From assembly GCA_014584695.1 (NCBI GenBank), contig JACTMI010000008.1, positions 15,333-79,332 of the forward strand: DNA of 64,000 nt, read 5' to 3'. The notes beneath the pieces were generated by a model, which saw only the letters and a program-made list of their open reading frames with translations, was not told the DNA's origin and did no database searches. The position numbers were made by a program, and so were the translations under genes. Shown here one piece after another: positions 2,862 to 25,045 of the stretch (positions are counted from its first letter, which is position 1; each line of letters begins with the position of its first letter). Origin of the DNA: Acidobacteriota bacterium. GTDB lineage: Bacteria > Acidobacteriota > Thermoanaerobaculia > Multivoradales > JAGPDF01.

Positions 2862-3029
2862 GGCGGGAGCTCCCCTTCGCAGTCCCCGATAGTCTAGTAA
2901 GCCAGGACGCCGAAATTGAACCCCTCCTGCTAGGCTGTTCCCGGCATTCTCCTAAAACACTTAACTCTCACCAGCAAGAGACACAACGATCTATCGTCCA
3001 GATCCACGCCACGCCCCAGCACGCCCCCG

Positions 3030-5775: not shown

Positions 5776-5795
5776 ACCCGAGGGAGACCCATCCC

Positions 5796-9800: not shown

Positions 9801-10264
9801 GGTTCCGCTCTTTCGTGACGCCGATGATCATCATGGCGCCGATCCCGCTGACGCTGATCGGCATCGTGCCGGCGCACGCCCTGGGCGGGGTCTTCTTCAC
9901 CGCCACCTCGATGATCGGCTTCATCGCGCTCGCCGGCATCATCGTGCGCAACTCGATTCTGCTGGTCGACTTCGTCAACCTCGAGCTCGAGGCCGGAGCG
10001 CCACTCGCGGAAGCCGTGACCAAGGCGGCCGCCGTCCGCTTCCGGCCGATCGCGCTCACCGCCGCGGCGCTGGTCGTGGGCGGCGTCGTCATCCTCCTCG
10101 ACCCGATCTTCCAGGGGCTCGCGGTGGCGCTCATCTCGGGCGTCGTGGTCTCGACCGCGCTCACCCTGGTGGTCATCCCGCTCCTCTACTACATGTACGT
10201 CTCGACCGTCGGCGTCGCAGCCGTCGCGCCCGCCGCCGACCGAGAATCCGGAGGTGAAGCATGA
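6884..10264 (+). CDS. RND family efflux transporter permease (AcrB/CzcA-like), about 1126 aa
   Basis: 12-TM RND topology with two large periplasmic loops. Motifs FAIGILVDDAIVVVENIHRH and NSILLVDFVN. GTG at 6884 overlaps the upstream stop; in frame with ORF 5402..10264. Confidence 0.9.
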   Translation: MSPDESTRPGVGSGAGLPERTRREALRLRQTRKPLGFAGKVAAAFLDSKLTPLLVVASLLLGAFAVLVTPREEEPQIKVPMVDVFVQLPGATAEEVERRLVTPLEKALFEIPGVEHVYSTSQPSGGMIIVRYLVGTDPDRAALAVHTKLAEKAAELPAGAPPPLVVPRGIDDVPALAYTLWSETATPLELRQVAQELRAELVRHPRVAQVHVLGGVRRAITVRFDRERLAAHQVSILQVYQALAGLDWKLPAGSFAAGDVDTEVEVGALFRSADEVAAAVVGVYPDGAGGRRPVYLRDVATVADGPDEPAQYVWMTAGAAGAHKRLPAGLDTPAVTLAIAKKPGTNAVDLVAELDALVARLAGPLLPANVEITKTRDYGFTADEKSSELMKHLGLATLSVVLLMALALGRREAVVVLVAVPVTLALTLASSYLFGYTLNRVTLFALIFAIGILVDDAIVVVENIHRHFQLGWTHPRHATVYATDEVGNPTILATFTVIGALLPLAFVSGLMGPYMRPIPINASAAMLFSLIVAFVVSPWLTYRLFRKHAEAMASGQHDKPGAATEQEGRLDRLYQRIFAPLLASRLKRWALLAGVAILLVASVMLFPFRFAAVKMLPHDNKSELQVVIDMPEGTTLERTAAVARELAMTVRSLPEVTDVETYVGTSAPFSFNGLVRHYFLRSGPLVADLQVNLLPKHDRKRASHDFAKQLRPLLAPIAARHGANVKVTEVPPGPPVLSTLVAEVYAPTPAERLSLAEQVKAIFESTPGVVDVDWYVEGPGPKLELEVDREKAARAGVSPEVVARTLRVALAGADAAHLSDPRAREPVPVTLRLDRAQRSGAAELLAVDVHGADGRLVPLSELVRPVETVRAPFVYHKNLRPVTYVLGDVAPTRPGSSAESPVYAIADMGERIGALRDAAGRPLEVLFSGRPADGTRSALVWDGEWQVTHDVFLDMGIAFAAVLVLIYLLVVGWFRSFVTPMIIMAPIPLTLIGIVPAHALGGVFFTATSMIGFIALAGIIVRNSILLVDFVNLELEAGAPLAEAVTKAAAVRFRPIALTAAALVVGGVVILLDPIFQGLAVALISGVVVSTALTLVVIPLLYYMYVSTVGVAAVAPAADRESGGEA

Positions 10265-10753: not shown

Positions 10754-11121
10754 GCGACCCGGCATCGATGACGCCGACGGACGAGTTGCTGGGCCGGATC
10801 GCCGAGCGCCTGAAGGCCCTCGCCGACCCCACCCGGCTCAAGATCCTCCACTCCCTGGAGCAGGGTGAGCGCTGCGTCTCGGACATCCTCGCCGCGGTGG
10901 GCGGCAGCCAAGCCAATGTCTCCAAGCACCTGGCGCTGCTGCGCCGGACCGGGATCGTGGCGGCCCGGCGGGCGGGGACGAACGTTCTCTACCGGGTCGT
11001 CGATCCGGCGGCCTTCGAGATCTGCCGGACCGTCTGCGGCGTTCTCGAGGAGCGGGCTGACGCCGACCGGCGGATGATCCGCAGCGCCACCGGCGGCCGT
11101 CGGAGGGCGCTCGCGCGATGA
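10750..11121 (+). CDS. ArsR/SmtB-family metalloregulatory transcriptional repressor
   Basis: 123 aa; LKALADPTRLKILHSLEQGERCVSDILAAVGGSQANVSKHLALLRRTGIV is a winged HTH with a metal-binding Cys in the alpha3 region. ATGA overlap with the upstream gene. Confidence 0.85.
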   Translation: MSDPASMTPTDELLGRIAERLKALADPTRLKILHSLEQGERCVSDILAAVGGSQANVSKHLALLRRTGIVAARRAGTNVLYRVVDPAAFEICRTVCGVLEERADADRRMIRSATGGRRRALAR

Positions 11122-11207
11122 GCGACCTGCTGCTCTTCCTCGTCTTCCTGGCGGTCTGGGTGCTGCTGCAGAATTGGCTGCTGCCACGCCTGGGCGTCCC
11201 CACGTGA
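11118..11207 (+). CDS. Putative 29-aa hydrophobic micro-protein (MSDLLLFLVFLAVWVLLQNWLLPRLGVPT)
   Basis: ATG overlaps the arsR stop (ATGA). It encodes a single predicted TM helix and is too short for the ORF track. Speculative. Confidence 0.25.
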   Translation: MSDLLLFLVFLAVWVLLQNWLLPRLGVPT

Positions 11208-11299
11208 AGCGTCCCCGACCCGGCCGGGCGCCGGGTGTGCGGGCCAAGGCGGATCGAGACCTCGACGGCGCCGCCGCCGGTCGAACCGGAAGGAGAATC

Positions 11300-11698
11300 A
11301 TGCGCGACACCGGAATCGCCTACCAGACCGAAGTCGACCTGAGTTTCGAGCAGGCCGTCGCCCGCTGCCGCGAGGAGCTGGCGCGGGAGGGCTTCGGCGT
11401 GCTGACCGAGATCGACATCCGCGCCAAGCTGGCCGAGAAACTGGGCGTCGAGGTGCCGCCGAACGTCATTCTCGGCGCCTGCCACCCGCCGTCGGCCCAC
11501 CGGGCGCTCCAGGCCGTACCCGAGGTGGCCGTGCTGCTGCCCTGCAACGTCACCGTGGCGATCGAAGCCGGTCGAACCGTCGTCCGGGCGATGAACCCCG
11601 AGGGGGCGATGAAGCTGCTCGCCAACCCGGCTCTCGACGAGGTCGCCGCCACCGTCGGCGCCGCGCTGCGCCGGGTGCTCGAGCGCGTCGCCGGCTGA
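11300..11698 (+). CDS. DUF302 domain protein
   Basis: ATG at 11300 after GGAAGGAGA. MRDTGIAYQTEVDLSFEQAVARCREELAREGFGVLTEIDIRAKL... matches the DUF302 fold family. Confidence 0.75.
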   Translation: MRDTGIAYQTEVDLSFEQAVARCREELAREGFGVLTEIDIRAKLAEKLGVEVPPNVILGACHPPSAHRALQAVPEVAVLLPCNVTVAIEAGRTVVRAMNPEGAMKLLANPALDEVAATVGAALRRVLERVAG

Positions 11699-11722
11699 TC
11701 GCCGATCAGCACTCGAGCGACG

Positions 11723-12241
11723 CTAGCGCTGGACCTCGATCCACGCGCGCGGCCGGACCAGGAAGAGATAGACCCCTTTGTCCTCGACCACGGCGAAGCC
11801 GAGCCGCTCGTAGAGTCGCCGCGCTCCGGTGTTGAAGGCCTCGACGTGAATCGACACGGGGACCCGGGCGCGCTCGGCCTCGTCGAGAACGAGCCGGATC
11901 AGGCGGGTGCCGACGCCGCGGTTGCGCGCCCGCGGTAGCAGGGCGAGATCGACGATGCGGAGCTCCTCGCTTCCGAGCGACCGGTAGAGCCGGCCGACCG
12001 GCTCGCCGCCGACCTCGACGACGTCGAAGCTCGCGCTCGGGTAGTTGCGGCGGTACTCGTGGTCCTGGGCCTCGAACTGGAGGCGGAGGAATGACTCCTT
12101 CTGCGCCTCGCTCCAGGGTACCGGCGCGAGCTCTTCGACGCGGGTCGAAGCGTAGACGCGAAAGAGCAGCTCGCGGTCGCTCGGCGTCGCCGGGCGGAGG
12201 GCGAGCGCCTCCGGCTCCAGCTCCGCGGGCGGCCCGTTCAT
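11723..12241 (-). CDS. GNAT-family N-acetyltransferase
   Basis: 172 aa from the internal Met MNGPPAELEP; acetyl-CoA motif RNRGVGTRLIRLVLDEAER. Its start overlaps the stop of the upstream gene (ATGA). Confidence 0.75.
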   Translation of the reverse strand: MNGPPAELEPEALALRPATPSDRELLFRVYASTRVEELAPVPWSEAQKESFLRLQFEAQDHEYRRNYPSASFDVVEVGGEPVGRLYRSLGSEELRIVDLALLPRARNRGVGTRLIRLVLDEAERARVPVSIHVEAFNTGARRLYERLGFAVVEDKGVYLFLVRPRAWIEVQR

Positions 12242-13074
12242 CCGATCCGGCGGATGCCGACCGCGACCGACTCGAATCCGCCGGCGCGCTGGAGCAGCTC
12301 GAACATCGTGCCGCGCCAACCTTGTTCCCAGGTTCGGTCGCCGAAGGCCAGCAGGTAGACCCCTTCCTGCAGCTTCGGCCGGCCGGCGATGGCGTCCACG
12401 GTGAAGTCAGCGGCCCGGTACCGAGGCCCCTCGACGACCGGGGGCAGGGTGCCGGGGCGGCGAGGCAAGGGCAACGAGCCACCCGGGAGTCGACCGCCGC
12501 CAGCTCGCGTCTCGAGGCCGAAGTAGAGCCCGCCGTCGACCCCGGTCTCGACCACCGGGCGGACCTTCGCCGCTTGGCGCGCCTGCGGGTCCATGCGCGC
12601 GCTCCAGGCCAGGAAAGCGAGCGGCTCGGGGCCGAGCACCATCTCCGGTGGCGTGTCGGTGCCGGCGAACAGGTAACAGGTGCGGAAGCCCGCCGCGAGC
12701 TCCGAGTCCGGCACGCTCGGGAAGAAACCGTGCACGTTGACTTCGACTCGCGCCAGCGCTAGCTCCGAGCTGACCGTCAAGCGCTCGGCGGGGACGATCG
12801 AGAGCTCGAGCGACCCCGGGTCGAAGCCGGGCTGCTCCCAGGGCAGATCGAGCTCCTGGACCCAACCTTCGCTTTCCTCGATGAACCCCACCGAGAGATG
12901 GGCCGGCGTCAGCAGGTCGAGGCCGAGCGGCGACGCGATCGCCTGCTTCGCCAGGGCGGCGAAGGGGCTCGCGAACGTCGCCCCGGCTGCGATCACCGAA
13001 CCGAGGGCCAGAGCCTCGCGCCGCGACACTTCGGCTCTGTAGCGCGCCGTTCCTCCTGCCTTGCCGTCGCTCAT
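12238..13074 (-). CDS. Hypothetical exported protein with twin-arginine (Tat)-like signal
   Basis: 278 aa from MSDGKAGGTARYRAEVSRREALALGSVIAAGATFASPFAALA (SRREAL plus a hydrophobic stretch). RBS GGGGGAG upstream. No recognisable domain. Confidence 0.5.
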   Translation of the reverse strand: MSDGKAGGTARYRAEVSRREALALGSVIAAGATFASPFAALAKQAIASPLGLDLLTPAHLSVGFIEESEGWVQELDLPWEQPGFDPGSLELSIVPAERLTVSSELALARVEVNVHGFFPSVPDSELAAGFRTCYLFAGTDTPPEMVLGPEPLAFLAWSARMDPQARQAAKVRPVVETGVDGGLYFGLETRAGGGRLPGGSLPLPRRPGTLPPVVEGPRYRAADFTVDAIAGRPKLQEGVYLLAFGDRTWEQGWRGTMFELLQRAGGFESVAVGIRRIG

Positions 13075-13102
13075 GACGTACTCCCCCAACCGCGAAAACC
13101 GC

Positions 13103-13405
13103 TCAAGTGAAGATGGCCTCGTAGCGCATGGAACCGTCCCGCGGCCCGAGCGGTACCAGGAAGATCTCGAGTCGGCCGACACCCTCCGCTTCGAGAGGGA
13201 GGATCTGCTGCGGGTACCAGGGACTCATCGGGCCGTGGAAGATCAGCCGGAAGGGCTCGCGCTTCGACTGCGGATCCGTGCCGCTCGCGAGGGGCTCCGC
13301 GGCGACGAGCGCGAGCTCGACATCAGCCGGCGCCGGCCTGTCGACCCGGAAGCGCAGGCCCAACCGCCCGGAGAAGTGCTCCCGCCTCAACTCAGCGATG
13401 TCCAT
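13103..13405 (-). CDS. Hypothetical protein (about 100 aa)
   Basis: Internal Met MDIAELRREHFSGRLGL... at 13405. It sits in the same-strand gene string; no recognisable motif. Confidence 0.4.
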   Translation of the reverse strand: MDIAELRREHFSGRLGLRFRVDRPAPADVELALVAAEPLASGTDPQSKREPFRLIFHGPMSPWYPQQILPLEAEGVGRLEIFLVPLGPRDGSMRYEAIFT

Positions 13406-13537
13406 CTTGTCGGATCCTCGCGTGGCGGACTCCTCGCGCGACCCTCGCGAGAGGCTGCCCCCTGCGCCCTTCGGCCGCGCGCGCTGCAGCTCGGTTTCGT
13501 GCCGGCAGACTACCACCCCGGGACCTCGAAGCGCCTC

Positions 13538-14146
13538 TCATCGCCCGCCGTTCCCCTCCTCCTGCCGGTAGGCCTCGGGCCAGAACCCCTGCCAGTCGCA
13601 CCAATCGGCGTGGCGGGCGCGCAGCCGGGCCATCTCCTCGTCGACCTCCGCGGCGTGAGGATTCGGCCAGATGTCGTGCCAGCCGACGGTGAAACGGCGG
13701 CCGGCCGGCGGGACCCAGGAGAAGGCGTCGGCCGCCAGGATCTCGATCCGCTCGCCGTAGCGTGCCGCGAGATAGGGCGCGACCAGGCGGATGACGTCGG
13801 CGGAGAGCTCGAGAATCGTGATGCGGGAGACGCGCGCGCTCCATCGGCGCAGAACGGCCTCGGCGATCAGCCCGAGACCCAGGCCGGTGATCAAGATCTC
13901 CCCGCCGCGCGCGGCCTCCCGCAACGCGTCGCGCTGCGTCCACCATTCGTCGTAGAGGTCGGTCATGAACTGCTCGGGACCACGGCGCAAGCAGGTGTAG
14001 GTTCCAGGCCGGAACTTGAAGCAGTCTGGCCGCCGATCCGTGGCGGGCTCGTAAGCCCGGTCCGGAACGGTGACCCGCTCGATCACCCACTCCCCCGACC
14101 GGCCCGTCGGCACCTCGGACCGGATGTAGTCCGCGAGGGTCTCCAT
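13538..14146 (-). CDS. Putative class I SAM-dependent methyltransferase-like protein
   Basis: 202 aa; Rossmann G-x-G-x-G motif ILITGLGLGLIAEAVL followed by an acidic strand ILELSADV and IEILAADAF. Confidence 0.5.
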   Translation of the reverse strand: METLADYIRSEVPTGRSGEWVIERVTVPDRAYEPATDRRPDCFKFRPGTYTCLRRGPEQFMTDLYDEWWTQRDALREAARGGEILITGLGLGLIAEAVLRRWSARVSRITILELSADVIRLVAPYLAARYGERIEILAADAFSWVPPAGRRFTVGWHDIWPNPHAAEVDEEMARLRARHADWCDWQGFWPEAYRQEEGNGGR

Positions 14147-14188
14147 CGCCGAGCGCCGTGACCTCCTGCCGCTGCTCTTGCTCTCGTC

Positions 14189-14716
14189 CTAGGTCCGCGG
14201 CGGAAAGACACCCTGCAGCGCGATGCAGAAGCTCACGGTCAGGTAGGGCATCATGTTGTTGTGCGGCGCGTCGCCGCCCACCGGCGCGAGCGCCTGATCG
14301 GACATGGCCACCAGGCTCGCGTTGGCGGTGTTGAAGATGTTGTTGCCGCGGCCGAAGGGCCTCGCGACCAGGGCTCCGGCCGGCTGATTGGAGTTCGCCG
14401 CGTCGTTGGAGGCCCGCATGGTGTGGGCATGCGAAGGGATCTCCGACTCGAGCAACGTGACGGTCTCCGAGCCCCCGCTCTCCCCCAGGTCGTGCAGCGA
14501 GAGGCCCGGTCCCTGCCCCGGCTGCATCGGCGCGCGCCCCTGCAGGTCGGGCAACGCGAAGTTCGACTTGCCGTTGCCGCCGTAAGTGGTTCCGAGCAGA
14601 GAAAAGAGAGCCGTGTTCTGCGACAGTGGCAGCAGCTGCCCGTCGCAGAACGCCCAGCCCCTGGGCGCGAAGTTGAACGGAAAGATGCGGATCTCCGCGA
14701 CGAACGGGTCGGCCAT
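14189..14716 (-). CDS. Phage tail-collar domain protein (PF07484-like; 'microcystin-dependent protein' MdpB family), paralog 1
   Basis: 175 aa; MADPFVAEIRIFPFNFAPRGWAFCDGQLLPLSQNTALFSLLGTTYGGNGKSNFALPDLQGR ... EIPSHAH ... GGDAPHNNMMPYLTVSFCIALQGVFP. Strong AGGAG RBS. Confidence 0.85.
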   Translation of the reverse strand: MADPFVAEIRIFPFNFAPRGWAFCDGQLLPLSQNTALFSLLGTTYGGNGKSNFALPDLQGRAPMQPGQGPGLSLHDLGESGGSETVTLLESEIPSHAHTMRASNDAANSNQPAGALVARPFGRGNNIFNTANASLVAMSDQALAPVGGDAPHNNMMPYLTVSFCIALQGVFPPRT

Positions 14717-14724
14717 GTTCGCTC

Positions 14725-15231
14725 CTAGGGCGGCGAGGGGAAGATGCCGAACAGCGAAATGATGAAATTGACGCAGAGGTACGGCTGGAAGTTGGTGTGG
14801 GGTTGCGAGCCCCCGGTGGCCGCGATCGCCTGCGGGTTCATGTTGACCGAGCTGGTCGCGAGCGTGTTGTAGATGCTGCCGGCGAGCGAAGTGGCGAGCA
14901 CGTTGTTCTGCGGGCTGGTCGCCTGACCGGCGGCGCCGCTGGTCATCTTCGGATGCGAATGCGCTGGAACCTGATTGACCGTCAGCGTGATCTCTTCCGC
15001 GCCGCCGGTCTCGGCGAGGATGAAGCCGTTGCCTTGGTGGATCGGCAGGCGGCCCCTCAGGTCCGGAACGGCGAACGTGCTCTGGCCGTCCCCTCCGTAG
15101 GTCGTGCCGATCAGCTGGAACAGCGTCTCGTTCTCGGAGATCGGCAGCAGTTGGCCCTCACAGAGCATCCAGCCGGCGGGAGCGAAGTTCCCGCCGAACA
15201 TGCGAATCTCGCCGACATACGGTTGCGCCAT
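14725..15231 (-). CDS. Phage tail-collar domain protein, paralog 2
   Basis: 168 aa; MAQPYVGEIRMFGGNFAPAGWMLCEGQLLPISENETLFQLIGTTYGGDGQSTFAVPDLRGR ... QVPAHSH ... GGSQPHTNFQPYLCVNFIISLFGIFP. AAGGAG RBS; 8-10 bp gaps to its neighbours. Confidence 0.85.
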   Translation of the reverse strand: MAQPYVGEIRMFGGNFAPAGWMLCEGQLLPISENETLFQLIGTTYGGDGQSTFAVPDLRGRLPIHQGNGFILAETGGAEEITLTVNQVPAHSHPKMTSGAAGQATSPQNNVLATSLAGSIYNTLATSSVNMNPQAIAATGGSQPHTNFQPYLCVNFIISLFGIFPSPP

Positions 15232-15241
15232 GGCCGCTCCT

Positions 15242-15751
15242 TCAGGTCGGGCTCGGGAAGATGCCCTGGAGCGCGATCATGAAGTTGAGTGTCAGGAAGG
15301 GCTGCAAGTTGAGGTGGGCCTGCGAGCCTCCCGCGTTGAGAACCGCGCCAGAGTGGGCGGCAGCCAGGCTCGCCGGCGGACCGTAGATGCTACCGACCGC
15401 CGCCGAGGCGACCGCGAGAAAGGCGTTGGTCGGGTCGGTCGCGTTGGCGCTGGCGCCGACGCCGCTGGCGACGTGGGTGTGCAGCGGCAGCTCGGCGATC
15501 GAGAGCGTGTGCGCCTGCTCGCCAGCCCGCTCGCCGAGCGTGTGTCCCGACCCGGCGTGGATCGGAGTCCGCGCTCGCAGATCGGGCAGGGCGAAGTTGG
15601 TCTGGCCGTTGCCACCGTAGGTCGTGCCCAGCAGGGAGAAGAGCGCCTGGTTCTGGTTGATGGGCAGCAGCTGACCATTGCACTGCGCCCACCCCTGCGG
15701 CACGAAACCGAACGACGCGATCCGGATCTCGCTCAGAAACGGCTCTGCCAT
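15242..15751 (-). CDS. Phage tail-collar domain protein, paralog 3
   Basis: 169 aa; MAEPFLSEIRIASFGFVPQGWAQCNGQLLPINQNQALFSLLGTTYGGNGQTNFALPDLRAR ... ELPLHTH ... GGSQAHLNLQPFLTLNFMIALQGIFP. GGAGGAGGGGGA RBS. Confidence 0.85.
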   Translation of the reverse strand: MAEPFLSEIRIASFGFVPQGWAQCNGQLLPINQNQALFSLLGTTYGGNGQTNFALPDLRARTPIHAGSGHTLGERAGEQAHTLSIAELPLHTHVASGVGASANATDPTNAFLAVASAAVGSIYGPPASLAAAHSGAVLNAGGSQAHLNLQPFLTLNFMIALQGIFPSPT

Positions 15752-15790
15752 CTCGTTGTCCCCCTCCTCCGTCGAGTGTCGCCGACGCCG

Positions 15791-18700
15791 TCAGAACATC
15801 GGCCCGCTCGGTTGGAGGCAGGCACCCGGCACGACGTCGATCGTCGAACCGACCTCCACGTTCACGAACGGCGGACTGGTCGTCGGCGAGTTCGCGCCAC
15901 CGAGATTGCCGCGCGCTCCCAGCAGTGTCGCGCAGGCCGCCGAAGGACTTCCGACCGGGCAGGTGCCCGATCCGACCAGGTTGAAGTCGCCGGCGAACTC
16001 CTCGAGCGAGTAGCCGTCCGGGGCCCGGTTGTTCTGCAGGTCGAGGCACAGCGTTCCGCCGCCGCCGGTGGGCAGGATTCGAGACTCGAAGGTCTGGCCG
16101 GGATCGAAGCCGGCATCGTGCTCGGCGAAGAGGTCGTTGATGATCGTCAGATCGAGGACGGCGCCGTTCTGGAGGTCGGCGAGCGCGCGCAGGCCGGGTC
16201 CGCAGAAGCCGGCCGCGCCCGGACAGAGCTGACCGGCGCCGAGGTTGCAGCCGCCGCCGGCGGAGGACGGATCGGTGCTGCAGAACGCGCCCTTGATCCC
16301 GAGGTTGTTGCGGAACATGACCCGCGCGCTCACCGTGCTGTCGGCGCGCAAGAACCAGGGCGCGTTGCCCGGCGTGTCGAAGGTGTTGTCCTCGACCAGA
16401 ACATTCCAGGTGCCATTGGTCATCGCCAGAGTGAACTGGCCGACGCCGCCCGAAGCGTTGGCGATCTCGTCGAAGTAGTTGCCGTCGACGACGACGTTCC
16501 AGGTCATCGTGTCGGTCCCCAGGGAGCCGACCAGCACGCCGCCCTGCGGGAAGTCGAAGTCGCCACCGATGCCGCTCGAGTGGTCGTTGACGGTGAACTC
16601 GTTCTGTCCGATCACCACGTCGACGTTGCCGGTCGCCCCGGCGTCGCCGACCACCCGGATCGAGCCGATGGCGCAGTTGAGGAAGTCGTTGTCGAGCGCG
16701 TTGTTGACGCGGTCGCCGATGGTCACCGAGGCATTGCCGGCGCCCTGCACCGTGACGTCGATGCAGTGGCCGCCGACCGAGGAGCGCGGCCCGGAGGTGA
16801 ACTCCTTGTAGGCATGGTGGAAGTTGTTGTTGGTCGCGGTCATGGTCAAGGTGCCGCCGGTGACGAAGAAGTCGATCAGCTCGCCGCCGCGCTGGAGCGT
16901 GCTGTTGGTGACCGAGACCGGACCGCGGATGCCGAGGATGCGAACCATCCCCTCGTTGTTGGAGTCACCGACGCCCGCGACGTGGAAGCGGTTGCTGTCC
17001 TCGAACGTCACGTTGTTGAGCGTCAGGCCGTTCCACACCGTGGCCGCGCCGCCCGCCAGCGTGGCGCCGTGGATCGCGTTGTCGCTGATCCGGCGGATGA
17101 TGACACCGTCGAGCGTCAAGCCGCCGTCGACGTCCTGACCGTGGATGGCATCGTGCCCGCTGATCGTGTCGATGCCCCCGCCCATGTTGCCGAGATCCTC
17201 GAAGATCATGTGGCGCAGGGTCACCGGGCCGTCGGTGTTGTTCATCGTCATGCCGTCGGCGGTCTTGTTGTCGATCGTGCCGCCGGTGCCCGCGGAGCCG
17301 GTGCCGGTGACGTGGAACGGTCCGCTCCCGGTGTTGGCGAGGATGATCGCGGTGTTGCCGCTGGCGCCGGCCGAGTTGATCGAACGGAGCGTGACGCCGT
17401 CCGGCGTGATCGTCGTGTTGCTGAGGTTCAACACCGTCGCCGTGGTGGTGCTCAGGGCGTTGACCAGCGGCCCGGTGCTCCCCGGGTTGCACGGGCTCTC
17501 GTCGCAGATCGAGAGCCGGCCGCCGCTGGTGGCGGTGAACGCCGGGTTGGCACCCGTCGAGGCGGACAGGCCCCCGGCGAAGACGGTCGTGGACGCGGCG
17601 CCGTTGGAGTTGAGCAGGATGCCGCTGCCGGTCTCGGTGATCGCTCCGGTGAACGACACCGTGTCGCTGGTGCGCGAACTGATCGCCACCGCGCGGCCGT
17701 TGTTGTTGGTGACCGGGATTCCGAGCGTCACGTGCCCGCTGCCACCGGTGACGACGACCGCATCGCCCGAGGCCCCGGCCGGATCGCTGATCGCCCCGGA
17801 GTTGACCGAGAGCGCCGTGGCGCCGACGCCGCCGAAGGCGTTGACCAGCGACAGGCCGGTGGTGGTCGAGTTGGTGCTCTCCAGGAAACCGAGCGGCAGC
17901 GTCACCGAGGCGTTGTTGACGCTCACCGCCGGACCGCCGTTCGAATCGATCGTCGCGACGCCGGCCGGCACCACCAGGCGGAAGCCGGTACCGGCGCCGG
18001 CGTTGAGCGCACCGGTCGAAGTGACGCCGAGGCCGGTGCCGGCGTCGTTGAAGATGTCGAGATCGGTGAAGCCGAGGTCGCCGAGGACGTTGGTGAGCAG
18101 GAGGCCGTGGGTGCCGACGCCGTTGCCCGACTGACCGATCAGGGTCACCCCGCCCGCGACCTGCTGGATCGGCAGGCCGGGGACGGCGTCGAAGGTCGCG
18201 CCCGCGACCTCGATGCCCGAGCCGCCGGTGTTCCCGTGGATCACGTTGTCGTCGAAGCGGGTGATCGTGAGCGGGCCGCCGGTTCGCGTCACGTCGATGC
18301 CGCGGCTGCCGGCGGTCACCGTGTTGTCGTGAATCGCCAGAGTGAGCGCGCCGGTGCCGCCATGGTTGACGTCGACTCCCTCCTCGCCCGAGCCCCGCAC
18401 GACGTTCTCACCGATGGTCAGCGATCCCGAGCCAGCGAACGCCGGGTTGGTGGTCAGGTCGATCCCGTTCGCGGCCACGCTCGACAGGCTCAGCCCGACG
18501 ATCTCGGTCGGAATCACGTCCGTCGCCGACACCGCACTGTTGCCGGCGCCACTGCGATCGACGAGCGGGCGGCTCCCCGGTGTACCGGAATGGAGCACCG
18601 TCGGCGAGCCGTTGCCGTTGAGGCCGACCGGAATCGACAGCCCGGCGTGCTCGCCGACCAGGCGCTGGCCGCTCTTGAGCGCGATGCCGGCGTCCTGGCC

Positions 18701-21139
18701 GGTCGAGGTGCCGTCGCCGAAGAAGACGAAGATCCAGTCGTTCGCCGCCGACGCCGTCTGCGCCTCGACCAGCGTGTCGAACGGGTCGAGCGAGCGGCCG
18801 AGGCCGCCGGCCGGGGCGTTGTTGCGGACGTACCAGACCCGTTCGAAGAAGTCGATCGTCACCGTGCCCGTCACGGTCGCGAGACCGTCCGAAACGTCGT
18901 AAGTGAAGCTGTCGGGCGACGTGCGGCCGGGCGGCGACGTGTAGCTGAAGCTGCCGTCGGCGGCGACGATCACGACCGCGCCCGCCGTCGCCGCGGCGAG
19001 CGACGCCGTCAACGCCGCGGGTCCGTCCGGATCGGTGTCGTTGGCGAGCAGGTTGCCGGCGGCGTAGACATAGGGGCCGTCGCCGTCGGGGCCGGGATCG
19101 ACGAGCGCGACCCGCAACCGGGTGTTCGAAATGGTCTGGAACGACTCGCCCGTGACCACCGGCGGGTCGTTGACCGGCGTGACCGTGATCGTCGAGGTCA
19201 CCGGCAGGGAGCCGTCGATCCCATCGCTCGCGAGCCAAGTCACCGTCCGGTCGAGCGCCGATGGGGCATCGGAGTTGTTGAAGTAGGTCACGCCGCGCAG
19301 CGCCGTCTGATAGGCCGCGAGCGTGGCGTTGCCGGTCAGCGTCAGCGTGCCGGTCGCCGGCACGAAAGTCGGCGAGAGTCCCGCGCAGGGGGCACCGCAG
19401 GCCAGGATGTCCTGGCCGTTCTGGTAGTTGCCGCTGATCTGGGCGCTCGCCGAAACGAGTTGCGCGTGGTCGGCGTCGGCGACGGTGATCGTGGTGTCGA
19501 TCGGCGTCGCGGGGTCGTTCTCCGTGTAGGCGAGCGTGGCCCCGGCGGAGAGCACCGGCCGATCGTTGACCGAGACCACCTGCACGGTCGCCGTCGCCGG
19601 CGCGCTGGTCTCGACGCCGTCGCTCGCCCGGAAGGCCACCGTGCGATCGAGGGTCGACGGGTCTTCCGAGGTGTTGTGGTAGCGGACGGCCCGCAGCGCG
19701 GTCTGGTAGTTGGCGACCGTTGAGGTGCCGGAGAGCGTCAACGTGCCGGTGGCGGGCACCCAATTGCCGGTGATGCCGAGCTGGTCGACGAAAGAGAGTA
19801 CGTCCTCGCCGTTCACGTAGTTGGCGGTGATCTGTGCCGTCGCGCCGACGAGCAGCAAGCTGTCGCCGTCGGTGACGGTGAGCGCCGGGTCGATCGCGGT
19901 CGCCGGATCGTTCTCTGTGTAGACGAGGGTACCGCCGGCGATCACCACCGGGGGCAAACGGTCGATGATGACATAAGCGAACGCGGATTGCGGCCCGATC
20001 GGATTGCCCAGGGCGTCGAGCGTCGGATCGCCCGCCGTCGGCACGAGCGTGTAGGAAAAAGCGTCGGTGCCCTGGAATCCCGCGGGCGGCGTGTAGACGA
20101 AATGTCCGTCGGCGCCGACGTCGACGGTTCCGCCCTGCGCGGTCGCGGATCCGCTCACGGCGATGGCCGCCAACGGATTTCCGTCGGCGTCCGAGTCGTT
20201 GGCGAGGAGCGACGCCACCAGGGCGGCGGAGCTGTCGAGAGGCGTCGAGGTCACCGTTCGATACTGGTCGCGGCGCGCGAGCGGCGTCGTCCGCACCGAG
20301 GCCGGGACCAACTGGAGGTTCGGCTCGAGCAGGTCGGCGAGCTCGACGTCCGTCGCCGCGCCGGCGCTGTTGGCGATCGTCACCCGATAGCGGAACGTGT
20401 CTCCGGGCTCGACGCCGGCGGGTGGGAGAGGTCCACCGCCCGCGGCGAGGTCGACCTTGGCGGCCGCGATCGCCGGGGAACCGGTGGCGATCCGGTCGAG
20501 GACCAGCCCCTGCTCCGTGCCGGCGATGCGCAGCTCGATCGCGCCGACGTCGGTCAGGTCGGCCGGGCCGAGAGCGCCGGGCACCGTGACCAGCTCCGCG
20601 AACGAGATGAACAGCGAGGTCGGCGCGCCGATCGCGGGCAACACGCGGCCGGCCCGCGAAGCGTGATCGGCGTCCTGGTGAACGACCACGACCATGTGCG
20701 CTCCCGCGGTGGCTGAAGCGATCGAGAGACGGATCCCGCCGGCGGTGCCGCCATCGGTCAGGTCGACGCCGCCGAGACCGGTCGGATCGAGGGCCAACGG
20801 GTCGTTATCGCCGTCCCAGACGAGGTCGATCTCGCCCCGGGTATCGGGCGTCGTGTCGGTCACCGCGAAGCTCAGCACGCCGCCCGCCACGCCCGCCGAC
20901 ACGGGCCCCACGCCCGCGAGTCTCCGCACCACCAAGTCCCGGCTCGTGCCGAGAATGTCCGCGCCGGCGGTGACGACTGTCGACGCGCCGCCGGGGGGAT
21001 CGGTGAGCGTCGCCTGGTTGGTCGTGAGCTCGTCGATGACGACCTCGGTCCACGCCGGAGTCGCCCATCCGAGCACGGCGAGGCCGACGAGAACGCGCCA
21101 ACCGGTCTTCACCCGGGTGGCGTGAGCGCGGCCGCTCAT
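15791..21139 (-). CDS. Giant secreted exoprotein (1782 aa): signal peptide, several cadherin-like/Ig-like repeats, C-terminal right-handed parallel beta-helix region
   Basis: Signal peptide WRVLVGLAVLGWATPAWTEV. Four repeats of ~100 aa with (L/V)xYTENDPAT..., VSVNDRPV and VTPVNDPPV motifs (cadherin-like). Then many NxxI/VxG/DNxV beta-helix rungs (DNTVTAGSRGIDVT, DNVIHGNTGGSGIEV, NNNFHHAY). The start ATG is coupled (ATGA) to the upstream gene's stop. Confidence 0.8.
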   Translation of the reverse strand: MSGRAHATRVKTGWRVLVGLAVLGWATPAWTEVVIDELTTNQATLTDPPGGASTVVTAGADILGTSRDLVVRRLAGVGPVSAGVAGGVLSFAVTDTTPDTRGEIDLVWDGDNDPLALDPTGLGGVDLTDGGTAGGIRLSIASATAGAHMVVVVHQDADHASRAGRVLPAIGAPTSLFISFAELVTVPGALGPADLTDVGAIELRIAGTEQGLVLDRIATGSPAIAAAKVDLAAGGGPLPPAGVEPGDTFRYRVTIANSAGAATDVELADLLEPNLQLVPASVRTTPLARRDQYRTVTSTPLDSSAALVASLLANDSDADGNPLAAIAVSGSATAQGGTVDVGADGHFVYTPPAGFQGTDAFSYTLVPTAGDPTLDALGNPIGPQSAFAYVIIDRLPPVVIAGGTLVYTENDPATAIDPALTVTDGDSLLLVGATAQITANYVNGEDVLSFVDQLGITGNWVPATGTLTLSGTSTVANYQTALRAVRYHNTSEDPSTLDRTVAFRASDGVETSAPATATVQVVSVNDRPVLSAGATLAYTENDPATPIDTTITVADADHAQLVSASAQISGNYQNGQDILACGAPCAGLSPTFVPATGTLTLTGNATLAAYQTALRGVTYFNNSDAPSALDRTVTWLASDGIDGSLPVTSTITVTPVNDPPVVTGESFQTISNTRLRVALVDPGPDGDGPYVYAAGNLLANDTDPDGPAALTASLAAATAGAVVIVAADGSFSYTSPPGRTSPDSFTYDVSDGLATVTGTVTIDFFERVWYVRNNAPAGGLGRSLDPFDTLVEAQTASAANDWIFVFFGDGTSTGQDAGIALKSGQRLVGEHAGLSIPVGLNGNGSPTVLHSGTPGSRPLVDRSGAGNSAVSATDVIPTEIVGLSLSSVAANGIDLTTNPAFAGSGSLTIGENVVRGSGEEGVDVNHGGTGALTLAIHDNTVTAGSRGIDVTRTGGPLTITRFDDNVIHGNTGGSGIEVAGATFDAVPGLPIQQVAGGVTLIGQSGNGVGTHGLLLTNVLGDLGFTDLDIFNDAGTGLGVTSTGALNAGAGTGFRLVVPAGVATIDSNGGPAVSVNNASVTLPLGFLESTNSTTTGLSLVNAFGGVGATALSVNSGAISDPAGASGDAVVVTGGSGHVTLGIPVTNNNGRAVAISSRTSDTVSFTGAITETGSGILLNSNGAASTTVFAGGLSASTGANPAFTATSGGRLSICDESPCNPGSTGPLVNALSTTTATVLNLSNTTITPDGVTLRSINSAGASGNTAIILANTGSGPFHVTGTGSAGTGGTIDNKTADGMTMNNTDGPVTLRHMIFEDLGNMGGGIDTISGHDAIHGQDVDGGLTLDGVIIRRISDNAIHGATLAGGAATVWNGLTLNNVTFEDSNRFHVAGVGDSNNEGMVRILGIRGPVSVTNSTLQRGGELIDFFVTGGTLTMTATNNNFHHAYKEFTSGPRSSVGGHCIDVTVQGAGNASVTIGDRVNNALDNDFLNCAIGSIRVVGDAGATGNVDVVIGQNEFTVNDHSSGIGGDFDFPQGGVLVGSLGTDTMTWNVVVDGNYFDEIANASGGVGQFTLAMTNGTWNVLVEDNTFDTPGNAPWFLRADSTVSARVMFRNNLGIKGAFCSTDPSSAGGGCNLGAGQLCPGAAGFCGPGLRALADLQNGAVLDLTIINDLFAEHDAGFDPGQTFESRILPTGGGGTLCLDLQNNRAPDGYSLEEFAGDFNLVGSGTCPVGSPSAACATLLGARGNLGGANSPTTSPPFVNVEVGSTIDVVPGACLQPSGPMF

Positions 21140-21948
21140 CGACCGGCCTCCCCCTCGCCCGGGCGACGGCGCAGCCTACGCGCGGCGAGCGCGGCGAGCG
21201 CGAACGCGAGCGCTGCGGCACCGAGCGGCCCGAGCGCTGGAATCGCCTGGAGCGGCGGCGCGCCGCCGGCGGCCCGGATCATCCAGTTGCCGGGCTGGAA
21301 GGAATCGATCAGGCCGAAGTACTGGCCGGGAGCTGGCGTCAGCTGCGGCGGATCTGGCGGATCGCCCGCCCAGATCGCGAGCCACGAGCGGCCCTGCGAC
21401 AGCCCGGTGTCGATCGCCGCCGGGAAGGTCGGGGGAGTCACGCCGCTGGTGATGAAGCGCGGCACCACGCCGACCAGCAGGTCGCTACCGGCCGGTACGA
21501 AGACCGGCGGATCGATCGGATAGACCGACGGTGTCACGCCGTCGAGCGCCTGAATGGCCGCGCCGAGAGTACGCGCGAGAGCCGCGCCGTTGGCCGGGTT
21601 GCCATCCGCGTCGACGTAGATGGCGATCTGGACCGCGTCGCCGACGGCCATCTGAGGATCGGGCAGAAAGAGCACCTCGACCGCGTCGAGGTCGAAGTTG
21701 CCGGGGGGAGAGAATCGGTTGAACCAGAGGAACTGCCGTGCGTTCTGGACCGCGACACCGACCGCGCCTTCGGCGCTGCCGTCGTCGAGCGACAGCACGG
21801 TCGAGCCCACGCCGAGCGTGGTCGGCGCCTCCGCCGAGCGTGCCGCGGGCCGGAAGGTCACGTCGGCACCCGCGGCGGGAAGTGCCCCCAGCGCCAGCAG
21901 CGCGCCGAACAGTACCGCCACCCCAGTCGATCCCGAGTCCTTCTTCAT
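21136..21948 (-). CDS. Secreted protein with PEP-CTERM-like C-terminal sorting signal (270 aa)
   Basis: MKKDSGSTGVAVLFGALLALGALPAAGA signal peptide. The C-terminus ...IPALGPLGAAALAFALAALAARRLRRR is a Pro-rich motif plus a TM helix plus an Arg cluster, typical of exosortase substrates. Confidence 0.6.
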   Translation of the reverse strand: MKKDSGSTGVAVLFGALLALGALPAAGADVTFRPAARSAEAPTTLGVGSTVLSLDDGSAEGAVGVAVQNARQFLWFNRFSPPGNFDLDAVEVLFLPDPQMAVGDAVQIAIYVDADGNPANGAALARTLGAAIQALDGVTPSVYPIDPPVFVPAGSDLLVGVVPRFITSGVTPPTFPAAIDTGLSQGRSWLAIWAGDPPDPPQLTPAPGQYFGLIDSFQPGNWMIRAAGGAPPLQAIPALGPLGAAALAFALAALAARRLRRRPGEGEAGR

Positions 21949-22004
21949 CGCGCGGCGCTCCCCGTCTCCCTGCCGGCCGCCGAGACTCCCAGCCGAACCC
22001 CCGC

Positions 22005-24066
22005 TCACGGCACGCACCCCGAGCAACCACCGTTCCACCGCGAGGTGTCCCCCGTCTCGAACCCGTCGGCGAAGATCGCCCCGCCGGCCGAAAGCCGCGC
22101 GCCGTCGATGCCACCGTCGAAGCTCTGCCCCGACGCGGTGACGAAGGCAAAGCGGCAGGCGGCCGACTGCGATCCGGCCGGCGGCGTGACGGCCCGGCTC
22201 AAGCTCGACCAGAGTCCACCGGTGTCGAACAGAACCAGCGTATCGGCGACCGTCCCGAGCAAGCCCGCGCAGGCGGCGGACGAATAGAACCGACAGCGGC
22301 GCTCGAATCCGATCGGCACTCCCGGCGCGGCGGCGAGGCGGACACGGACGTCCAGCTCGTAAGCCGTGCCGGCAACAACCTCCACGCACTGGCCGAGCCC
22401 GAACAGCGTGTCGACGCCCGGCGCCAAGTTGGTGAGGAACACCGAGCCCGAGTCGTCGGCGTCGTCGGCATCCGCGCTGCTCCAAGTGACCTCCGCCGGC
22501 ACCGCCGCTTCGGGCGTCCAGCCGCCCAGGTCGCAATCGAAGTGACCGTTGGCGAAGTGGTTGTCGGGGTCGCTCCGGAAAGCACGCCGGAAGTCGCCGC
22601 CGGCGTTCGCGTCGCCGTCGCCGTCGAGCGCGTTGCCGGCGAGATCGGTCAGCTCGTCGCACAGGAAGAGCCGGTGCTGGCCTGCGGCGAGCGGCGCGGC
22701 GAGGGAGAGCGTCGCGGTGTCGGTCCCCGTGTCGTAGGTGACACTGGAGATCGACACGGCGACATCGTCCCCCGCGGCGCCGCCGCAGCCGGTGGTGGCG
22801 AAGTCGAAGTCGGGGCCGGCGGCGACGACGAGGTAGTTGGCAGGATTCGTCACGTCCGCGGCGCCCGAATCGCCCGGCGGGTCGGCCATGGGTTCGCTGA
22901 AGACGGCCCGGAAGCCGCCGATCCACGAGGTGACCGTCTCGCACTCGGTGAGCTCGCCGCCCGGGCTCGCGGGCACGGTGTCCACCTCGATCACGGTCGG
23001 CGGTGTACTGTCGAGCGTCACCGTCAAGCAGTCGCTGTTGTCGCCCGGATTCGGATCGGCACCATTGGCGCCGTCGTCGGCGACCGATGCGCAGTTGTCG
23101 ACCTCGGGCACGCCGGGCGGCAGCGGGTCGTCGAGATCGACGGCGAAAACCGCGGCGCCGCCGGCCCCACCCCCAGCGACTCCACCGACCGCGAGCGTGC
23201 AGGTCGAGCCGGCGCTGTTGTCGGGCAGGCAGGCCCAACCGGCCGTCGACGCTCCCGGGTTGAAAGTCGTGTTCGCGGGTACCGTCTCGGTGATCGCGAC
23301 GCCGGTCGCGCCCTGATTGCCGACGTTCGAGTAGTCGAGGTCGAAGGGGATCGTGTCGCCGGGGAAGGGCGTCGGACCGGCGTATCCCTTGGCGAGGGTC
23401 AGATCCGGTTGGGCGACGAGCGGCGTCGTGTCGGTCGAGCTGTTGTTGCCCGGAGTCGGGTCGGCGCCGTTCGTCCCGTCATCGGCGATCGTCGCGGTGT
23501 TCGAGATCTGAGCGACACCGGATTGTCCACCGTGACGGCGAACGTCGCCGCGCCGCCGGCTCCGCCACCCGCGAGCGCGCCGATCGCGAGCGAGCAGGCC
23601 GAGCCGGCGTTGCCGTTCGGCACGCAAACCCAGCCGGCGGTCGATGCGCCGGCGTTGAAGGTCGTGTTCGCCGGCACCGTCTCGCCGAGCACCACGCCGG
23701 TCGCGCCCTGGTTGCCGACGTTGGAGTAGGTCAAGGTGTAAGCGACCGTGGCCCCGGGCACCGTCGAGATGCCGCCGTCGCTCTTGACGATGGTCAGGTC
23801 CGGTTGGGCCCGCCGAGCGCCGGGTCGTCAGTCGGCACATCGGGGTCGTAGTTGGAACCGCTGACGTCCCCCTGGTTGCAGACCTGCGTGGCGCCGGCGA
23901 GGACCGGGTTGGCGACCGTGACCAGCCACTCGATGGTAACGGCGGCGCCGTCCTCGAGCTCGCCCAGGGGAACCGTGATCAACTGCGCCCGGCTCGCCGT
24001 GGCCGCGAGGCCCACCCAGACGAGGGCCCAGCGGAGAATTTGACGACGAATCCCGAACCGGCTCAT
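22005..24066 (-). pseudogene. DUF11 ('conserved repeat domain') surface protein with signal peptide, interrupted by two apparent frameshifts (pseudogene or sequencing/assembly error)
   Basis: Three consecutive ORFs in different frames on the same strand (24066-23794, 23761-23399, 23840-22005) together encode one protein: signal MSRFGIRRQILRWALVWVGLAATASRAQ, then three DUF11 repeats (YSNVGNQGATGV..ETVPANTTFN.GASTAGW.C), then a jelly-roll-like C-terminal domain. Frame breaks lie near 23800 and 23510. Confidence 0.6.
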
Positions 24067-24223
24067 CTGATCGTTTCCGACGCTGCCGCCTGTAAAGGAG
24101 GCTGGAGTCTACTCCCTGTCACTCTGCCTGCCTAGAGACTCGCGGCGATTGGGCTGGCCGGCGTTCCACAACTCCCGGGAGAGCGGCCCTCTCGGAACGA
24201 GTTGGGCTCGATAGACTGACCCT

Positions 24224-25045
24224 GTGCCCCCTTACCTCGCCGCCGTCTGTCAGATGACCTCGACGTCCGACGCCGAGGGCAATCTGGCGCAGGCGGAGGT
24301 GCTGATCCGGCGTGCGGCGGCGCGTGGTGCCGCGCTGGTGGCGACGCCCGAGAACGCCACCTTCCTCGGCCCGCACGGCGAGAAGGTACGACGGGCAGAG
24401 ACGCTGGACGGTCCGGCCTGTCGGGGCTTCTCGGCGCTCGCCGCCGAGCTCGGGATCCACCTGCTGCTCGGCTCGTTCGCCGAGCGTGCCGACGATCCGC
24501 GCCGCGCCGCCAACACGAGCGTGCTCTTCGGCCCCGGCGGCGAGCGGCTGGCCTGCTACCGCAAGCTCCACCTGTTCGACGTCGACGTGCCGGGCGGGGT
24601 CAACTTCCGGGAGTCCGACACCGTGGTGGCCGGCGACCAGGTGGTGACCGTCGCGACGGCGCTCGGTACCCTCGGTCTCTCCATCTGTTACGACCTCCGG
24701 TTCGGTGAGCTTTACCGGGCCCTGGTCGCCCGCGGCGCCGAGCTGCTTCTGATTCCCTCGGCCTTCACCGCGGCGACCGGCAAGGCGCACTGGGAGACGC
24801 TGGTCCGCGCGCGCGCCATCGAGTCGCAGGCGTACGTGATCGCCCCTGGACAGTGGGGCAGTCACGACGACGATGGCCTGCGAGAGAGCCACGGCCAATC
24901 GATGATCGTCGATCCGTGGGGTCAATTGCTCGCCCAGGTGCCCGACGGCACCGGAATCGCTGTCGCCGAAATCGACCTCGACCGGGTGGCGCGGGTCCGC
25001 CGCGCCATCCCTGTCGCCACCCACCGGAGGCCCCTGCCGTGCTGA
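24224..25045 (+). CDS. Carbon-nitrogen hydrolase family protein (nitrilase/omega-amidase-like)
   Basis: 273 aa; LAAVCQMTSTSDAEGNL..., catalytic E/K/C context (LGLSICYDLRFGELYRAL). GTG start. Confidence 0.85.
   Translation: MPPYLAAVCQMTSTSDAEGNLAQAEVLIRRAAARGAALVATPENATFLGPHGEKVRRAETLDGPACRGFSALAAELGIHLLLGSFAERADDPRRAANTSVLFGPGGERLACYRKLHLFDVDVPGGVNFRESDTVVAGDQVVTVATALGTLGLSICYDLRFGELYRALVARGAELLLIPSAFTAATGKAHWETLVRARAIESQAYVIAPGQWGSHDDDGLRESHGQSMIVDPWGQLLAQVPDGTGIAVAEIDLDRVARVRRAIPVATHRRPLPC

Follow-up and report, generated by a model that had tools for sequence, protein, structure and literature searches.

A 64,000-nucleotide (nt) stretch of an Acidobacteriota genome (contig JACTMI010000008.1; hereafter referred to as the window) carries a cluster of ten genes, among them three tandem genes for short proteins that contain the tail-collar domain of phages (PF07484), here called ColA, ColB and ColC. 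This cluster is an instance of a conserved and widespread cassette that is undescribed in the literature we found. The cassette is built around a collar triplet of invariant order, most often accompanied by a GNAT acetyltransferase and a DUF6916 protein and frequently by a giant beta-helix exoprotein. The individual pieces are already known, namely the collar domain, a virophage collar heterotrimer, the bacterial collars of COG4675 and beta-helix exoproteins. The best explanation of the whole, to which we assign a probability of about one half, is that of a domesticated non-phage triple-collar cassette, whose collars form an exported heterotrimeric knob working with the giant protein.

Conservation of the triple-collar cassette across bacteria

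Relatives of the cassette were sought in one genome per species using patterns derived from the alignment of the three collars. At least 576 loci encode such relatives, among the 600 pattern matches listed. The best 80 of these loci were combined with the window (81 in total), all of their open reading frames (ORFs) were clustered and antisense artefacts were discarded. Collars of the best 80 loci are 63–73% identical to ColA, and these loci are distributed over Lysobacterales, Verrucomicrobiota, Acidobacteriota, Chloroflexota, Gemmatimonadales, Bacteroidota, Actinomycetota, Mesorhizobium and further groups. Among the species in which the scan detected relatives are the culturable Chiayiivirga flava DSM 24163, Mesorhizobium sp., Nocardioides currus and Spirosoma luteum. 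It should be kept in mind that the N-terminal motif of one gene or more was part of the scan patterns, a selection that has no bearing on which the other two genes are or on their order.

Clustering placed collars in all 81 loci, a GNAT orthologous to the one in the window in 74 and the giant-protein family in 43, and DUF6916 was assigned to 65 loci by clustering and to 69 by iterative search. Wherever the contig allows, the collars come as tandem triplets, so that a locus has three, six or nine of them; double or triple sets of triplets occur in two of the 80 loci. The order ColA-ColB-ColC holds for every complete triplet (78/78), the proteins at positions 1, 2 and 3 having their best matches in A, B and C, respectively. 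An earlier reading made from the sequence only had treated the collars as plain paralogues, but they are actually three ancient orthologous groups. Some loci are minimal and consist of the collars, GNAT and DUF6916 alone. In L015 and L019, the giant gene and the three collar genes are duplicated together as a block.

Within each of these two genomes, triplets located by different giant genes (L015:3407-12374 and L019:3733-13306) are 97–100% identical, which reflects either recent duplication or gene conversion. The third triplet of L019 is only 23–39% identical in the central region. Two other loci, L088 and L090, have a MalT/LuxR-type regulator (AAA_16/TPR and GerE domains) upstream of the cassette (L088:2688-3998 and L090:1-2213), as well as an SLT/TPR lytic transglycosylase and an M23 peptidase downstream. 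These genes may be regulators, mere neighbours or a sign of shared ancestry of the two genomes. Tandem collars are also present on contigs listed as viral. The best matches on such contigs are at most 56% identical, and those with GNAT look bacterial. Accordingly, L091 and L097 from IMG/VR probably represent bacterial DNA, because GNAT is also present there. The short 'viral' contigs L092–L096 from the same source encode 3, 6 or 9 tandem small collars of a divergent clade (38–57% identity).

Three collar groups with the signature of a fibre tip

As the sequence-only reading had proposed, three tandem collar genes directly follow the gene for the giant exoprotein, and each of their products scores well above the gathering threshold of PF07484 (94–102 bits compared to the cut-off of 24 bits). 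In the window, ColA, ColB and ColC share about 50% pairwise identity. Across phyla, identity is about 72% within a paralogue and 47–52% between paralogues, and the orthologue alignment has 17 paralogue-specific conserved columns. Since the collar domain begins already at residue 7–8 of each 168–175-amino-acid (aa) protein, all three lack both a signal peptide, as had been noted earlier, and an N-terminal shaft.

Residues P89, H91, H93 and H146 are invariant in the three proteins and across 234 orthologues. They belong to a stretch of features characteristic of gp12-type tips, that is, HxH after the collar and the C-terminal GGxxxHxNxxP[YF] return strand. The PxHxH motif of the Col proteins aligns with HxH of the solved tail-fibre tips 8kec and 9nxk, and 1ocy is matched as well; for ColB, the PDB matches to 8kec and 9nxk span the HxH motif. 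PHROG matches are exclusively to tail or tail-fibre families. The best match in a sequenced phage has about 43% identity and is found once in each genome, where it forms the C-terminal part of a larger minor tail protein. For residues 1–94, mean column conservation is 0.90, compared with 0.42–0.46 for residues 95–139 and again 0.90 for the C-terminal 30 residues, so each subunit can be described as a rigid scaffold with a hypervariable central segment. The position of this segment corresponds to the head loops of fibre tips and to the 'head patch' site of the virophage study discussed below.

Single-chain collar fusions

An exhaustive phmmer search with ColA resulted in 36,172 cluster representatives at E ≤1e-3, including 2,157 at E ≤1e-30. 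Many of the top matches are single chains of either approximately 500–560 aa (three collar units) or approximately 340 aa (two units), with linkers of 0–25 residues between the units. Three-unit chains are often made of three types in the order B-A-C (P0155, P0158, P0166, P0169, P0182, P0184 and P0206). This unit order differs from the A-B-C order of the operon (fusion set P0155–P0304; loci L111, L113 and L114). The fusions lend 'Rosetta-stone' support to an assembly of three units.

The P0158 fusion is identical in two independent assemblies and adjoins a 1657-aa immunoglobulin (Ig)-repeat/RTX protein. Sec-type signals are found in P0155, P0157, P0159, P0167, P0170, P0175 and P0201, while P0250 and P0292 start with RRKFLK or RRRFLK signals of the twin-arginine translocation (Tat) type. 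The P0250 gene is followed by a one-unit gene, a two-unit gene and a gene for a protein of at least 1445 aa. Because fused relatives carry Sec or Tat signals, the collar fold appears to be used outside the cytoplasm in some lineages, and in at least a few cases the fusions are probably exported by the Tat route.

The giant beta-helix exoprotein

The giant protein consists of an N-terminal signal-like segment, Big_9, Cadherin_4 and Cadherin_5 repeats at about residues 240–735 (Pfam) and a right-handed parallel beta-helix (pectin-lyase-like fold) at about residues 745–1782, of which the part up to about residue 1310 is conserved; the model is monomeric. The combination of Ig/cadherin-like repeats with a right-handed beta-helix had been predicted from the sequence and is borne out here. 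The likening of the beta-helix to phage tailspikes is correct as far as the fold is concerned, but the fold is not specific to phages, being equally that of polysaccharide lyases, hydrolases and adhesins. Identity to known beta-helix proteins (tailspike depolymerases, polysaccharide lyases/hydrolases, NosD and PfbA) is only 10–16%. Compared with this superfamily, the giant protein is distinguished by the fusion of its beta-helix to Big_9/cadherin repeats and by being monomeric in the model.

Homologues of the beta-helix region (query residues ~760–1310) lie near the triplet in 42 of the 80 loci. Of these loci, 38 have flanks of 6 kb or more on either side of the triplet, and here the number is 23. 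The homologue is upstream of the triplet in 28 cases and downstream in 12 (40/42 co-directional), and in the remaining two it is on the opposite strand. In a reverse test, we took four beta-helix homologues from a protein search, picked only for their long contigs. Three of them are located directly upstream of a collar triplet, which is followed by a protein of ~220–260 aa, GNAT and DUF6916; the weakest of the four homologues does not adjoin a triplet. Conservation of the neighbourhood of a collar triplet and a large beta-helix protein, named as a check in the earlier reading, is thus supported from both directions.

Partner proteins of the triplet

GNAT is the most conserved partner of the triplet. 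Its best similarities, all below threshold, are to RimI and Naa50-type N-alpha-acetyltransferases. With 36 bits against TIGR01575 (cut-off of 86) and PDB matches at E of 5e-5 or weaker, the protein can be considered only a generic GNAT.

DUF6916 in its 100-aa form is a small six-stranded beta-barrel without a signal peptide. We found no paper on DUF6916/PF21880. The strongest conservation of the protein is at its extreme C-terminus, which is unusual. In the clade that includes the window, DUF6916 proteins stop exactly at the invariant ...EAIFT C-terminus, whereas AVFN or AVINR-type endings are characteristic of the wider family and of the forms with a Tat signal.

The 278-aa protein had no match in Pfam and NCBIfam scans. 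It represents a fast-evolving family of about 200–280 aa, encoded between ColC and GNAT in 24 of the 81 loci. According to a motif test, 23 of these 24 have a twin-arginine (RR) motif and a hydrophobic stretch, as exemplified by the N-termini RRRDFLALG, DRRTFIAS and KRRQFLHT. Another 23 loci encode a second, longer DUF6916 (about 145–180 aa) with an SRRxFLK-type motif ahead of the domain. The two kinds of RR-signal proteins are mutually exclusive, as not a single locus among the 81 has both. Profile-profile comparison revealed no relationship between the 278-aa family and DUF6916 (hhalign probability of 0.4%), and therefore the two partner types are analogous, not demonstrably homologous. Altogether, an RR-signal partner is present in at least 46 of the 81 loci (the motif test missed a few obvious ones). 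No paper linking tail collars with Tat was found in the literature.

Layout of the cluster and neighbouring genes

G+C content is ~70% throughout the window, and genes were called using the ORF listing together with third-position GC. The resulting cluster is presented in Table 1.

Table 1. Genes of the minus-strand cluster in the order of transcription
Gene product	Position	Strand	Evidence
DUF11/CLIPPER-repeat surface protein, gene disrupted	22005-24066	minus	PF01345 and TIGR01451 matches
270-aa secreted protein with IPTL-CTERM-like tail	21136-21948	minus	TIGR04174 and NF033207, both sub-threshold
Giant 1782-aa exoprotein, Big_9/cadherin-like repeats and beta-helix	15791-21139	minus	Pfam repeats, predicted fold
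ColA, 169 aa, N-terminus MAEPFL, PxHxH motif	15242-15751	minus	PF07484, E 5.7e-27
ColB, 168 aa, N-terminus MAQPYV	14725-15231	minus	PF07484, E 1.7e-29
ColC, 175 aa, N-terminus MADPFV	14189-14716	minus	PF07484, E 3.8e-28
202-aa class-I methyltransferase-like protein, sporadic accessory	13538-14146	minus	phrog_15480, E 7e-23
DUF6916, 100 aa, no signal peptide, core cassette component	13103-13405	minus	PF21880, 86.9 bits (cut-off 27 bits)
278-aa protein, N-terminal twin-arginine-type signal (SRREALAL and hydrophobic stretch)	12238-13074	minus	Motif only
GNAT acetyltransferase, 172 aa, last gene of the cluster	11723-12241	minus	PF00583, PF13302

According to ORF coordinates, the ten co-directional genes span 11723-24066 and are separated, in the order of transcription, by 56, -4, 39, 10, 8, 42, 132, 28 and -4 bp; the 132-bp gap shrinks to 21 bp if an alternative start is used. 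Independent metagenome contigs with identical proteins lead to the same gene calls. This tight spacing makes co-transcription of the ten genes plausible. The sequence-only reading was right about the common direction and the tight spacing (in its account, gaps of 8–40 bp or 4-nt overlaps), but it listed nine genes, omitting GNAT. Moreover, the range that it considered (13538-24066) ends at the methyltransferase-like gene, leaving outside GNAT and the two genes it called hypothetical, now DUF6916 and the 278-aa protein.

The three genes outside the conserved set deserve separate consideration. The DUF11 repeats had been recognized correctly; the gene, however, is not a single intact ORF. A tblastn comparison with the 949-aa homologue from L087 aligned segments in three frames (24006-23860, 23812-23516 and 23522-22032 in frames -2, -1 and -3, respectively). 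A signal-peptide segment at 23794-24066 is followed by segments in two other frames, with the junctions near 23812-23860 and 23516-23522. Independent Logan contigs start or end near these breaks, which represent either real frameshift(s) or a tandem repeat collapsed in the assembly. DUF11 homologues are present only in close relatives, namely the Thermoanaerobaculia L018 and L077 and the Acidobacteriota L087.

The stop of the 270-aa gene overlaps the start of the giant gene by 4 nt. Homologues of its product are confined to L018 and L077, the closest relatives from Thermoanaerobaculia. Its C-terminus, encoded near 21136-21240 (IPALGPLGAAALAFALAALAARRLRRR), has a tail that reads IPALGPLG...RRLRRR. 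The protein had been labeled PEP-CTERM-like, but it matches no PEP-CTERM model. The tail is only IPTL-CTERM-like and below threshold (16.4 bits against TIGR04174 with the cut-off of 20.5), and the score on NF033207 (midcut-by-XrtH) is likewise sub-threshold; the Pfam scan of the protein gave no match. In L090, the cadherin protein encoded upstream of the beta-helix protein has a weak match to PF18203 (IPTL-CTERM). Both the DUF11 and the CTERM-type proteins had previously been listed with the cluster, but they are restricted to the closest relatives, and the top conserved partners are instead GNAT and DUF6916. This restricted distribution suggests an acidobacterial metagenome-assembled genome as the origin of the window.

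The description of the 202-aa protein as methyltransferase-like holds in part, through the PHROG match and weak matches to spermidine-synthase-type proteins/aminopropyltransferases, while Pfam gave none. Its homologue is present in only one other locus (L007), and therefore we do not consider it a core part of the cassette. In L087, a non-homologous class-I methyltransferase fills the same slot after ColC.

Elsewhere in the window, two long ORFs have their domains recognized only far from the N-terminus: ACR_tran from residue 545 of 1620 (5402-10264, plus strand) and Beta_elim_lyase from residue 509 of 920 (189-2951, minus strand). Both are probably over-extended at their starts in high-GC DNA, or else have unannotated N-terminal extensions.

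Comparison with known systems

By sequence, the collars match the receptor-binding domain of T4 gp12 (1OCY, 1H6W) and the tips 8KEC and 9NXK, with HxH conserved. Tips of the gp12 type are trimeric and bind lipopolysaccharide (LPS) or other surface receptors. Thomassen et al. reportedly showed in 2003 that Zn on the threefold axis of gp12 is bound by six histidines contributed by three chains. Phage fibre tips form homotrimers, and their long N-terminal shafts are anchored in the baseplate. In contrast, the cassette provides three distinct shaft-less subunits encoded in a cellular operon.

The sequence-only reading had described the module as not yet characterised. This is true of the cassette as such, since we found no paper describing it in bacteria, but stand-alone collars have already been catalogued. 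The MrpAB proteins of Microcystis are linked to COG4675 collars through MrpB. Bacterial collars outside prophages are collected in COG4675 ('microcystin-dependent protein'), an example being RhiB from rhiABC of Rhizobium leguminosarum. Proteins of COG4675 have been detected in soil metaproteomes, and for Solibacter, positive selection among paralogous collars was described in an earlier study. The rhi and mrp systems differ from the cassette in having a single collar gene and neither the A-B-C triplet nor GNAT and DUF6916; rhi also includes the unrelated RhiA and RhiC.

The proposed export of the collars invites comparison with Tat 'hitchhikers'. Such co-export was reportedly demonstrated by Rodrigue et al. 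in 1999 for the HybO/HybC subunits of E. coli hydrogenase-2, and DmsAB is a further example. The predicted likeness is in signal-less, metal-containing, pre-folded subunits beside a sole partner with a twin-arginine signal. It is purely an analogy. The RR-signal partner is missing from ~40% of the cassette loci, and the signal scores below the threshold of the hidden Markov model.

The closest parallel to the triplet itself is found in virophage DSLV2, whose three consecutive PF07484 proteins (QIG59353-55) co-purify as a 1:1:1 heterotrimer of ~55–58 kDa (J Virol 2025, PMC12724248). The heterotrimer forms short fibres and binds Synechococcus cells in an enzyme-linked immunosorbent assay, while the assignment of LPS as the receptor rests on docking; the complex comprises a collar base as well as a flexible head patch (PMC12724248). 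As in the cassette, the three collar genes are consecutive and co-oriented, and the subunits are comparable in size to ColA, ColB and ColC. Unlike the cassette, the DSLV2 trio is viral, lies beside capsid genes and is proposed to be capsid-mounted. Nor does it have GNAT or DUF6916, an RR-signal protein or a giant beta-helix partner.

Proposed mechanism and alternative explanations

We propose that ColA, ColB and ColC would each be the complete C-terminal receptor-binding tip (collar and head) of a gp12-type fibre without the shaft. The three would assemble 1:1:1 in the cytoplasm into a knob, in which the HxH motifs would converge on a pseudo-threefold axis and bind a metal ion, and the hypervariable central loops (~residues 95–139) would form the ligand-binding face. 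A heterotrimer is proposed because the collars belong to three ancient groups of orthologues, whose order never varies in the complete triplets. With the single-chain fusions and the virophage complex also pointing in this direction, we consider a single heterotrimeric, metal-centred knob likely. The knob would exit the cytoplasm already folded. Its likely export route here and in over half of the related loci would be to piggy-back on the adjoining protein with a twin-arginine signal (in the window, the 278-aa protein). By analogy with hitchhiker export, such transport of a signal-less, pre-folded knob wherever an RR-signal partner exists is conceivable, yet we regard it as doubtful. Outside the cytoplasm, the knob and the presumably co-transcribed giant exoprotein would make up a surface recognition or adhesion module, probably directed at glycans. 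Such joint action of the knob and the giant beta-helix/cadherin protein beyond the cytoplasm has, in our estimate, slightly less than an even chance. GNAT, joined here by the methyltransferase-like protein, may modify a component or a ligand, and DUF6916 may be a small beta-barrel accessory or adaptor.

A number of observations weigh against this model. A beta-helix neighbour was undetected in ~40% of the full-flank loci (15/38). Of the 81 loci, 35 have no recognisable RR-signal partner, among them complete loci of Chloroflexota and Bacteroidota, and therefore Tat piggy-back is not a universal route. The twin-arginine signals themselves have motif-level support, the Pfam TAT_signal model giving the relatives 15.6–18.3 bits compared to the 22.7 cut-off, and the RR motif of the 278-aa protein in the window (SRREAL) is degenerate. 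Many of the single-chain fusions have no signal peptide of any kind. Structural matches of DUF6916 are generic. The idea of a RimI-like GNAT acting on the collars by acetylation of their conserved MA(E/Q/D)P N-termini is weakened by the motif P-[FY]-x-x-E-I-[RK] being kept at the starts of internal units in the fusions; because it persists there, this N-terminal motif is structural. As for co-transcription, consensus scans of the region 11000-24600 found no promoter-like sites, and terminator-like sites were no more numerous than in shuffled sequence. Since the scans gave nothing above the shuffled background, it is the spacing that argues for an operon.

The alternatives differ in whether the collars form one knob and where it acts. 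ColA, ColB and ColC might instead form three separate homotrimeric knobs, isoforms with three binding specificities. This would agree with true phages, which have the domain once per genome at the C-terminus of homotrimeric tail proteins, with the differences among the variable central regions of A, B and C, and with certain sets of other clades, fused or tandem, that look like CCC or BBB. However, we find it improbable in view of exactly three genes always being present in a fixed orthologous order across phyla (78/78), the existence of paralogue-specific conserved residues and the 1:1:1 co-purification of the virophage triplet; in addition, chains of three different units would require threefold redundancy to make separate homotrimers. 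A somewhat better case, although still an unlikely one, can be made for a cytoplasmic role of the collars, GNAT and DUF6916, be it sensing/modification or an unrecognised form of defence, with the giant exoprotein merely a frequent neighbour. The lack of signal peptides in ColA, ColB, ColC, GNAT and the 100-aa DUF6916, the cytoplasmic cofactors needed by GNATs and methyltransferases, and the loci just mentioned without an RR-signal partner or a beta-helix neighbour all fit such a role. On the other hand, PADLOC defence models gave no match except a marginal one of mad2 (E 0.0011) to the methyltransferase-like protein. Furthermore, fused relatives carry Sec or Tat signals, 23 loci have the Tat-signal form of DUF6916, the giant gene and ABC are duplicated as a block, triple-collar genes adjoin other giant Ig-type proteins, and all the characterised relatives bind cell-surface receptors.

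The knob could also be a soluble secreted lectin or a bacteriocin-like module targeting other cells, independent of the giant protein. Hypervariable head loops on a conserved scaffold, the reported positive selection in Solibacter, the COG4675 proteins of soil metaproteomes and the minimal loci would be in line with this, but scans of the cassette revealed no toxin or immunity domains and the linkage to giant surface proteins is frequently tight and extends to co-duplication, so we rate this possibility lower than either of the preceding two. Finally, a degraded prophage or tailocin fragment that left its tail-fibre genes behind is effectively refuted, even though the collar domain, like the beta-helix, is typical of tail fibres and tailspikes, the methyltransferase-like protein matches a phage family and IMG/VR lists some contigs with tandem collars. 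Pfam scans of the large ORFs detected no genes for capsid, terminase, sheath, tube, baseplate, integrase or lysis in the whole 64-kb window, in agreement with the earlier conclusion that it is not a prophage. The window has uniform GC and houses housekeeping and transport genes, such as those for a beta-eliminating lyase, an AsnC regulator, an RND pump, P-II, nitrilase, aminotransferases, PBP1, a P-type ATPase, patatin, thiolase and an MMPL protein. Relatives of the cassette keep its non-phage partners in unrelated chromosomal contexts and many phyla, and the ~43% identity to the best phage match compares with 63–73% to bacterial loci. Thus, the earlier suggestion of a phage-derived module that is chromosomal and not a prophage is supported. 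A more far-reaching reading, which we find rather unlikely, is that an old domestication of a phage tip may have given rise to a surface-recognition organelle of many phyla, a metal-centred heterotrimeric lectin-like knob of exchangeable specificity. In that case, and with the same reservation, GNAT and a DUF6916 adaptor might mature the knob, which might be exported folded (through Tat if an RR-signal partner is present) and mounted on the giant exoproteins or work with them.

Implications

Stand-alone collar genes are very common and are routinely annotated as phage tail proteins or prophage markers. In many cases, they are part of a fixed ABC triplet accompanied by dedicated partners not of phage type, which offers a testable architecture, that of a heterotrimeric recognition knob. 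This architecture also provides the first functional context for DUF6916 and a clear case of a receptor-binding module of viral origin put to cellular use in different phyla. If the more far-reaching reading is true, the large 'phage tail protein'/COG4675 class in non-prophage DNA would represent a cellular adhesion/recognition system. Moreover, if the knob decorates giant adhesins or cooperates with them, this would define a new class of surface recognition in soil and water bacteria and a source of modular glycan-binding proteins.

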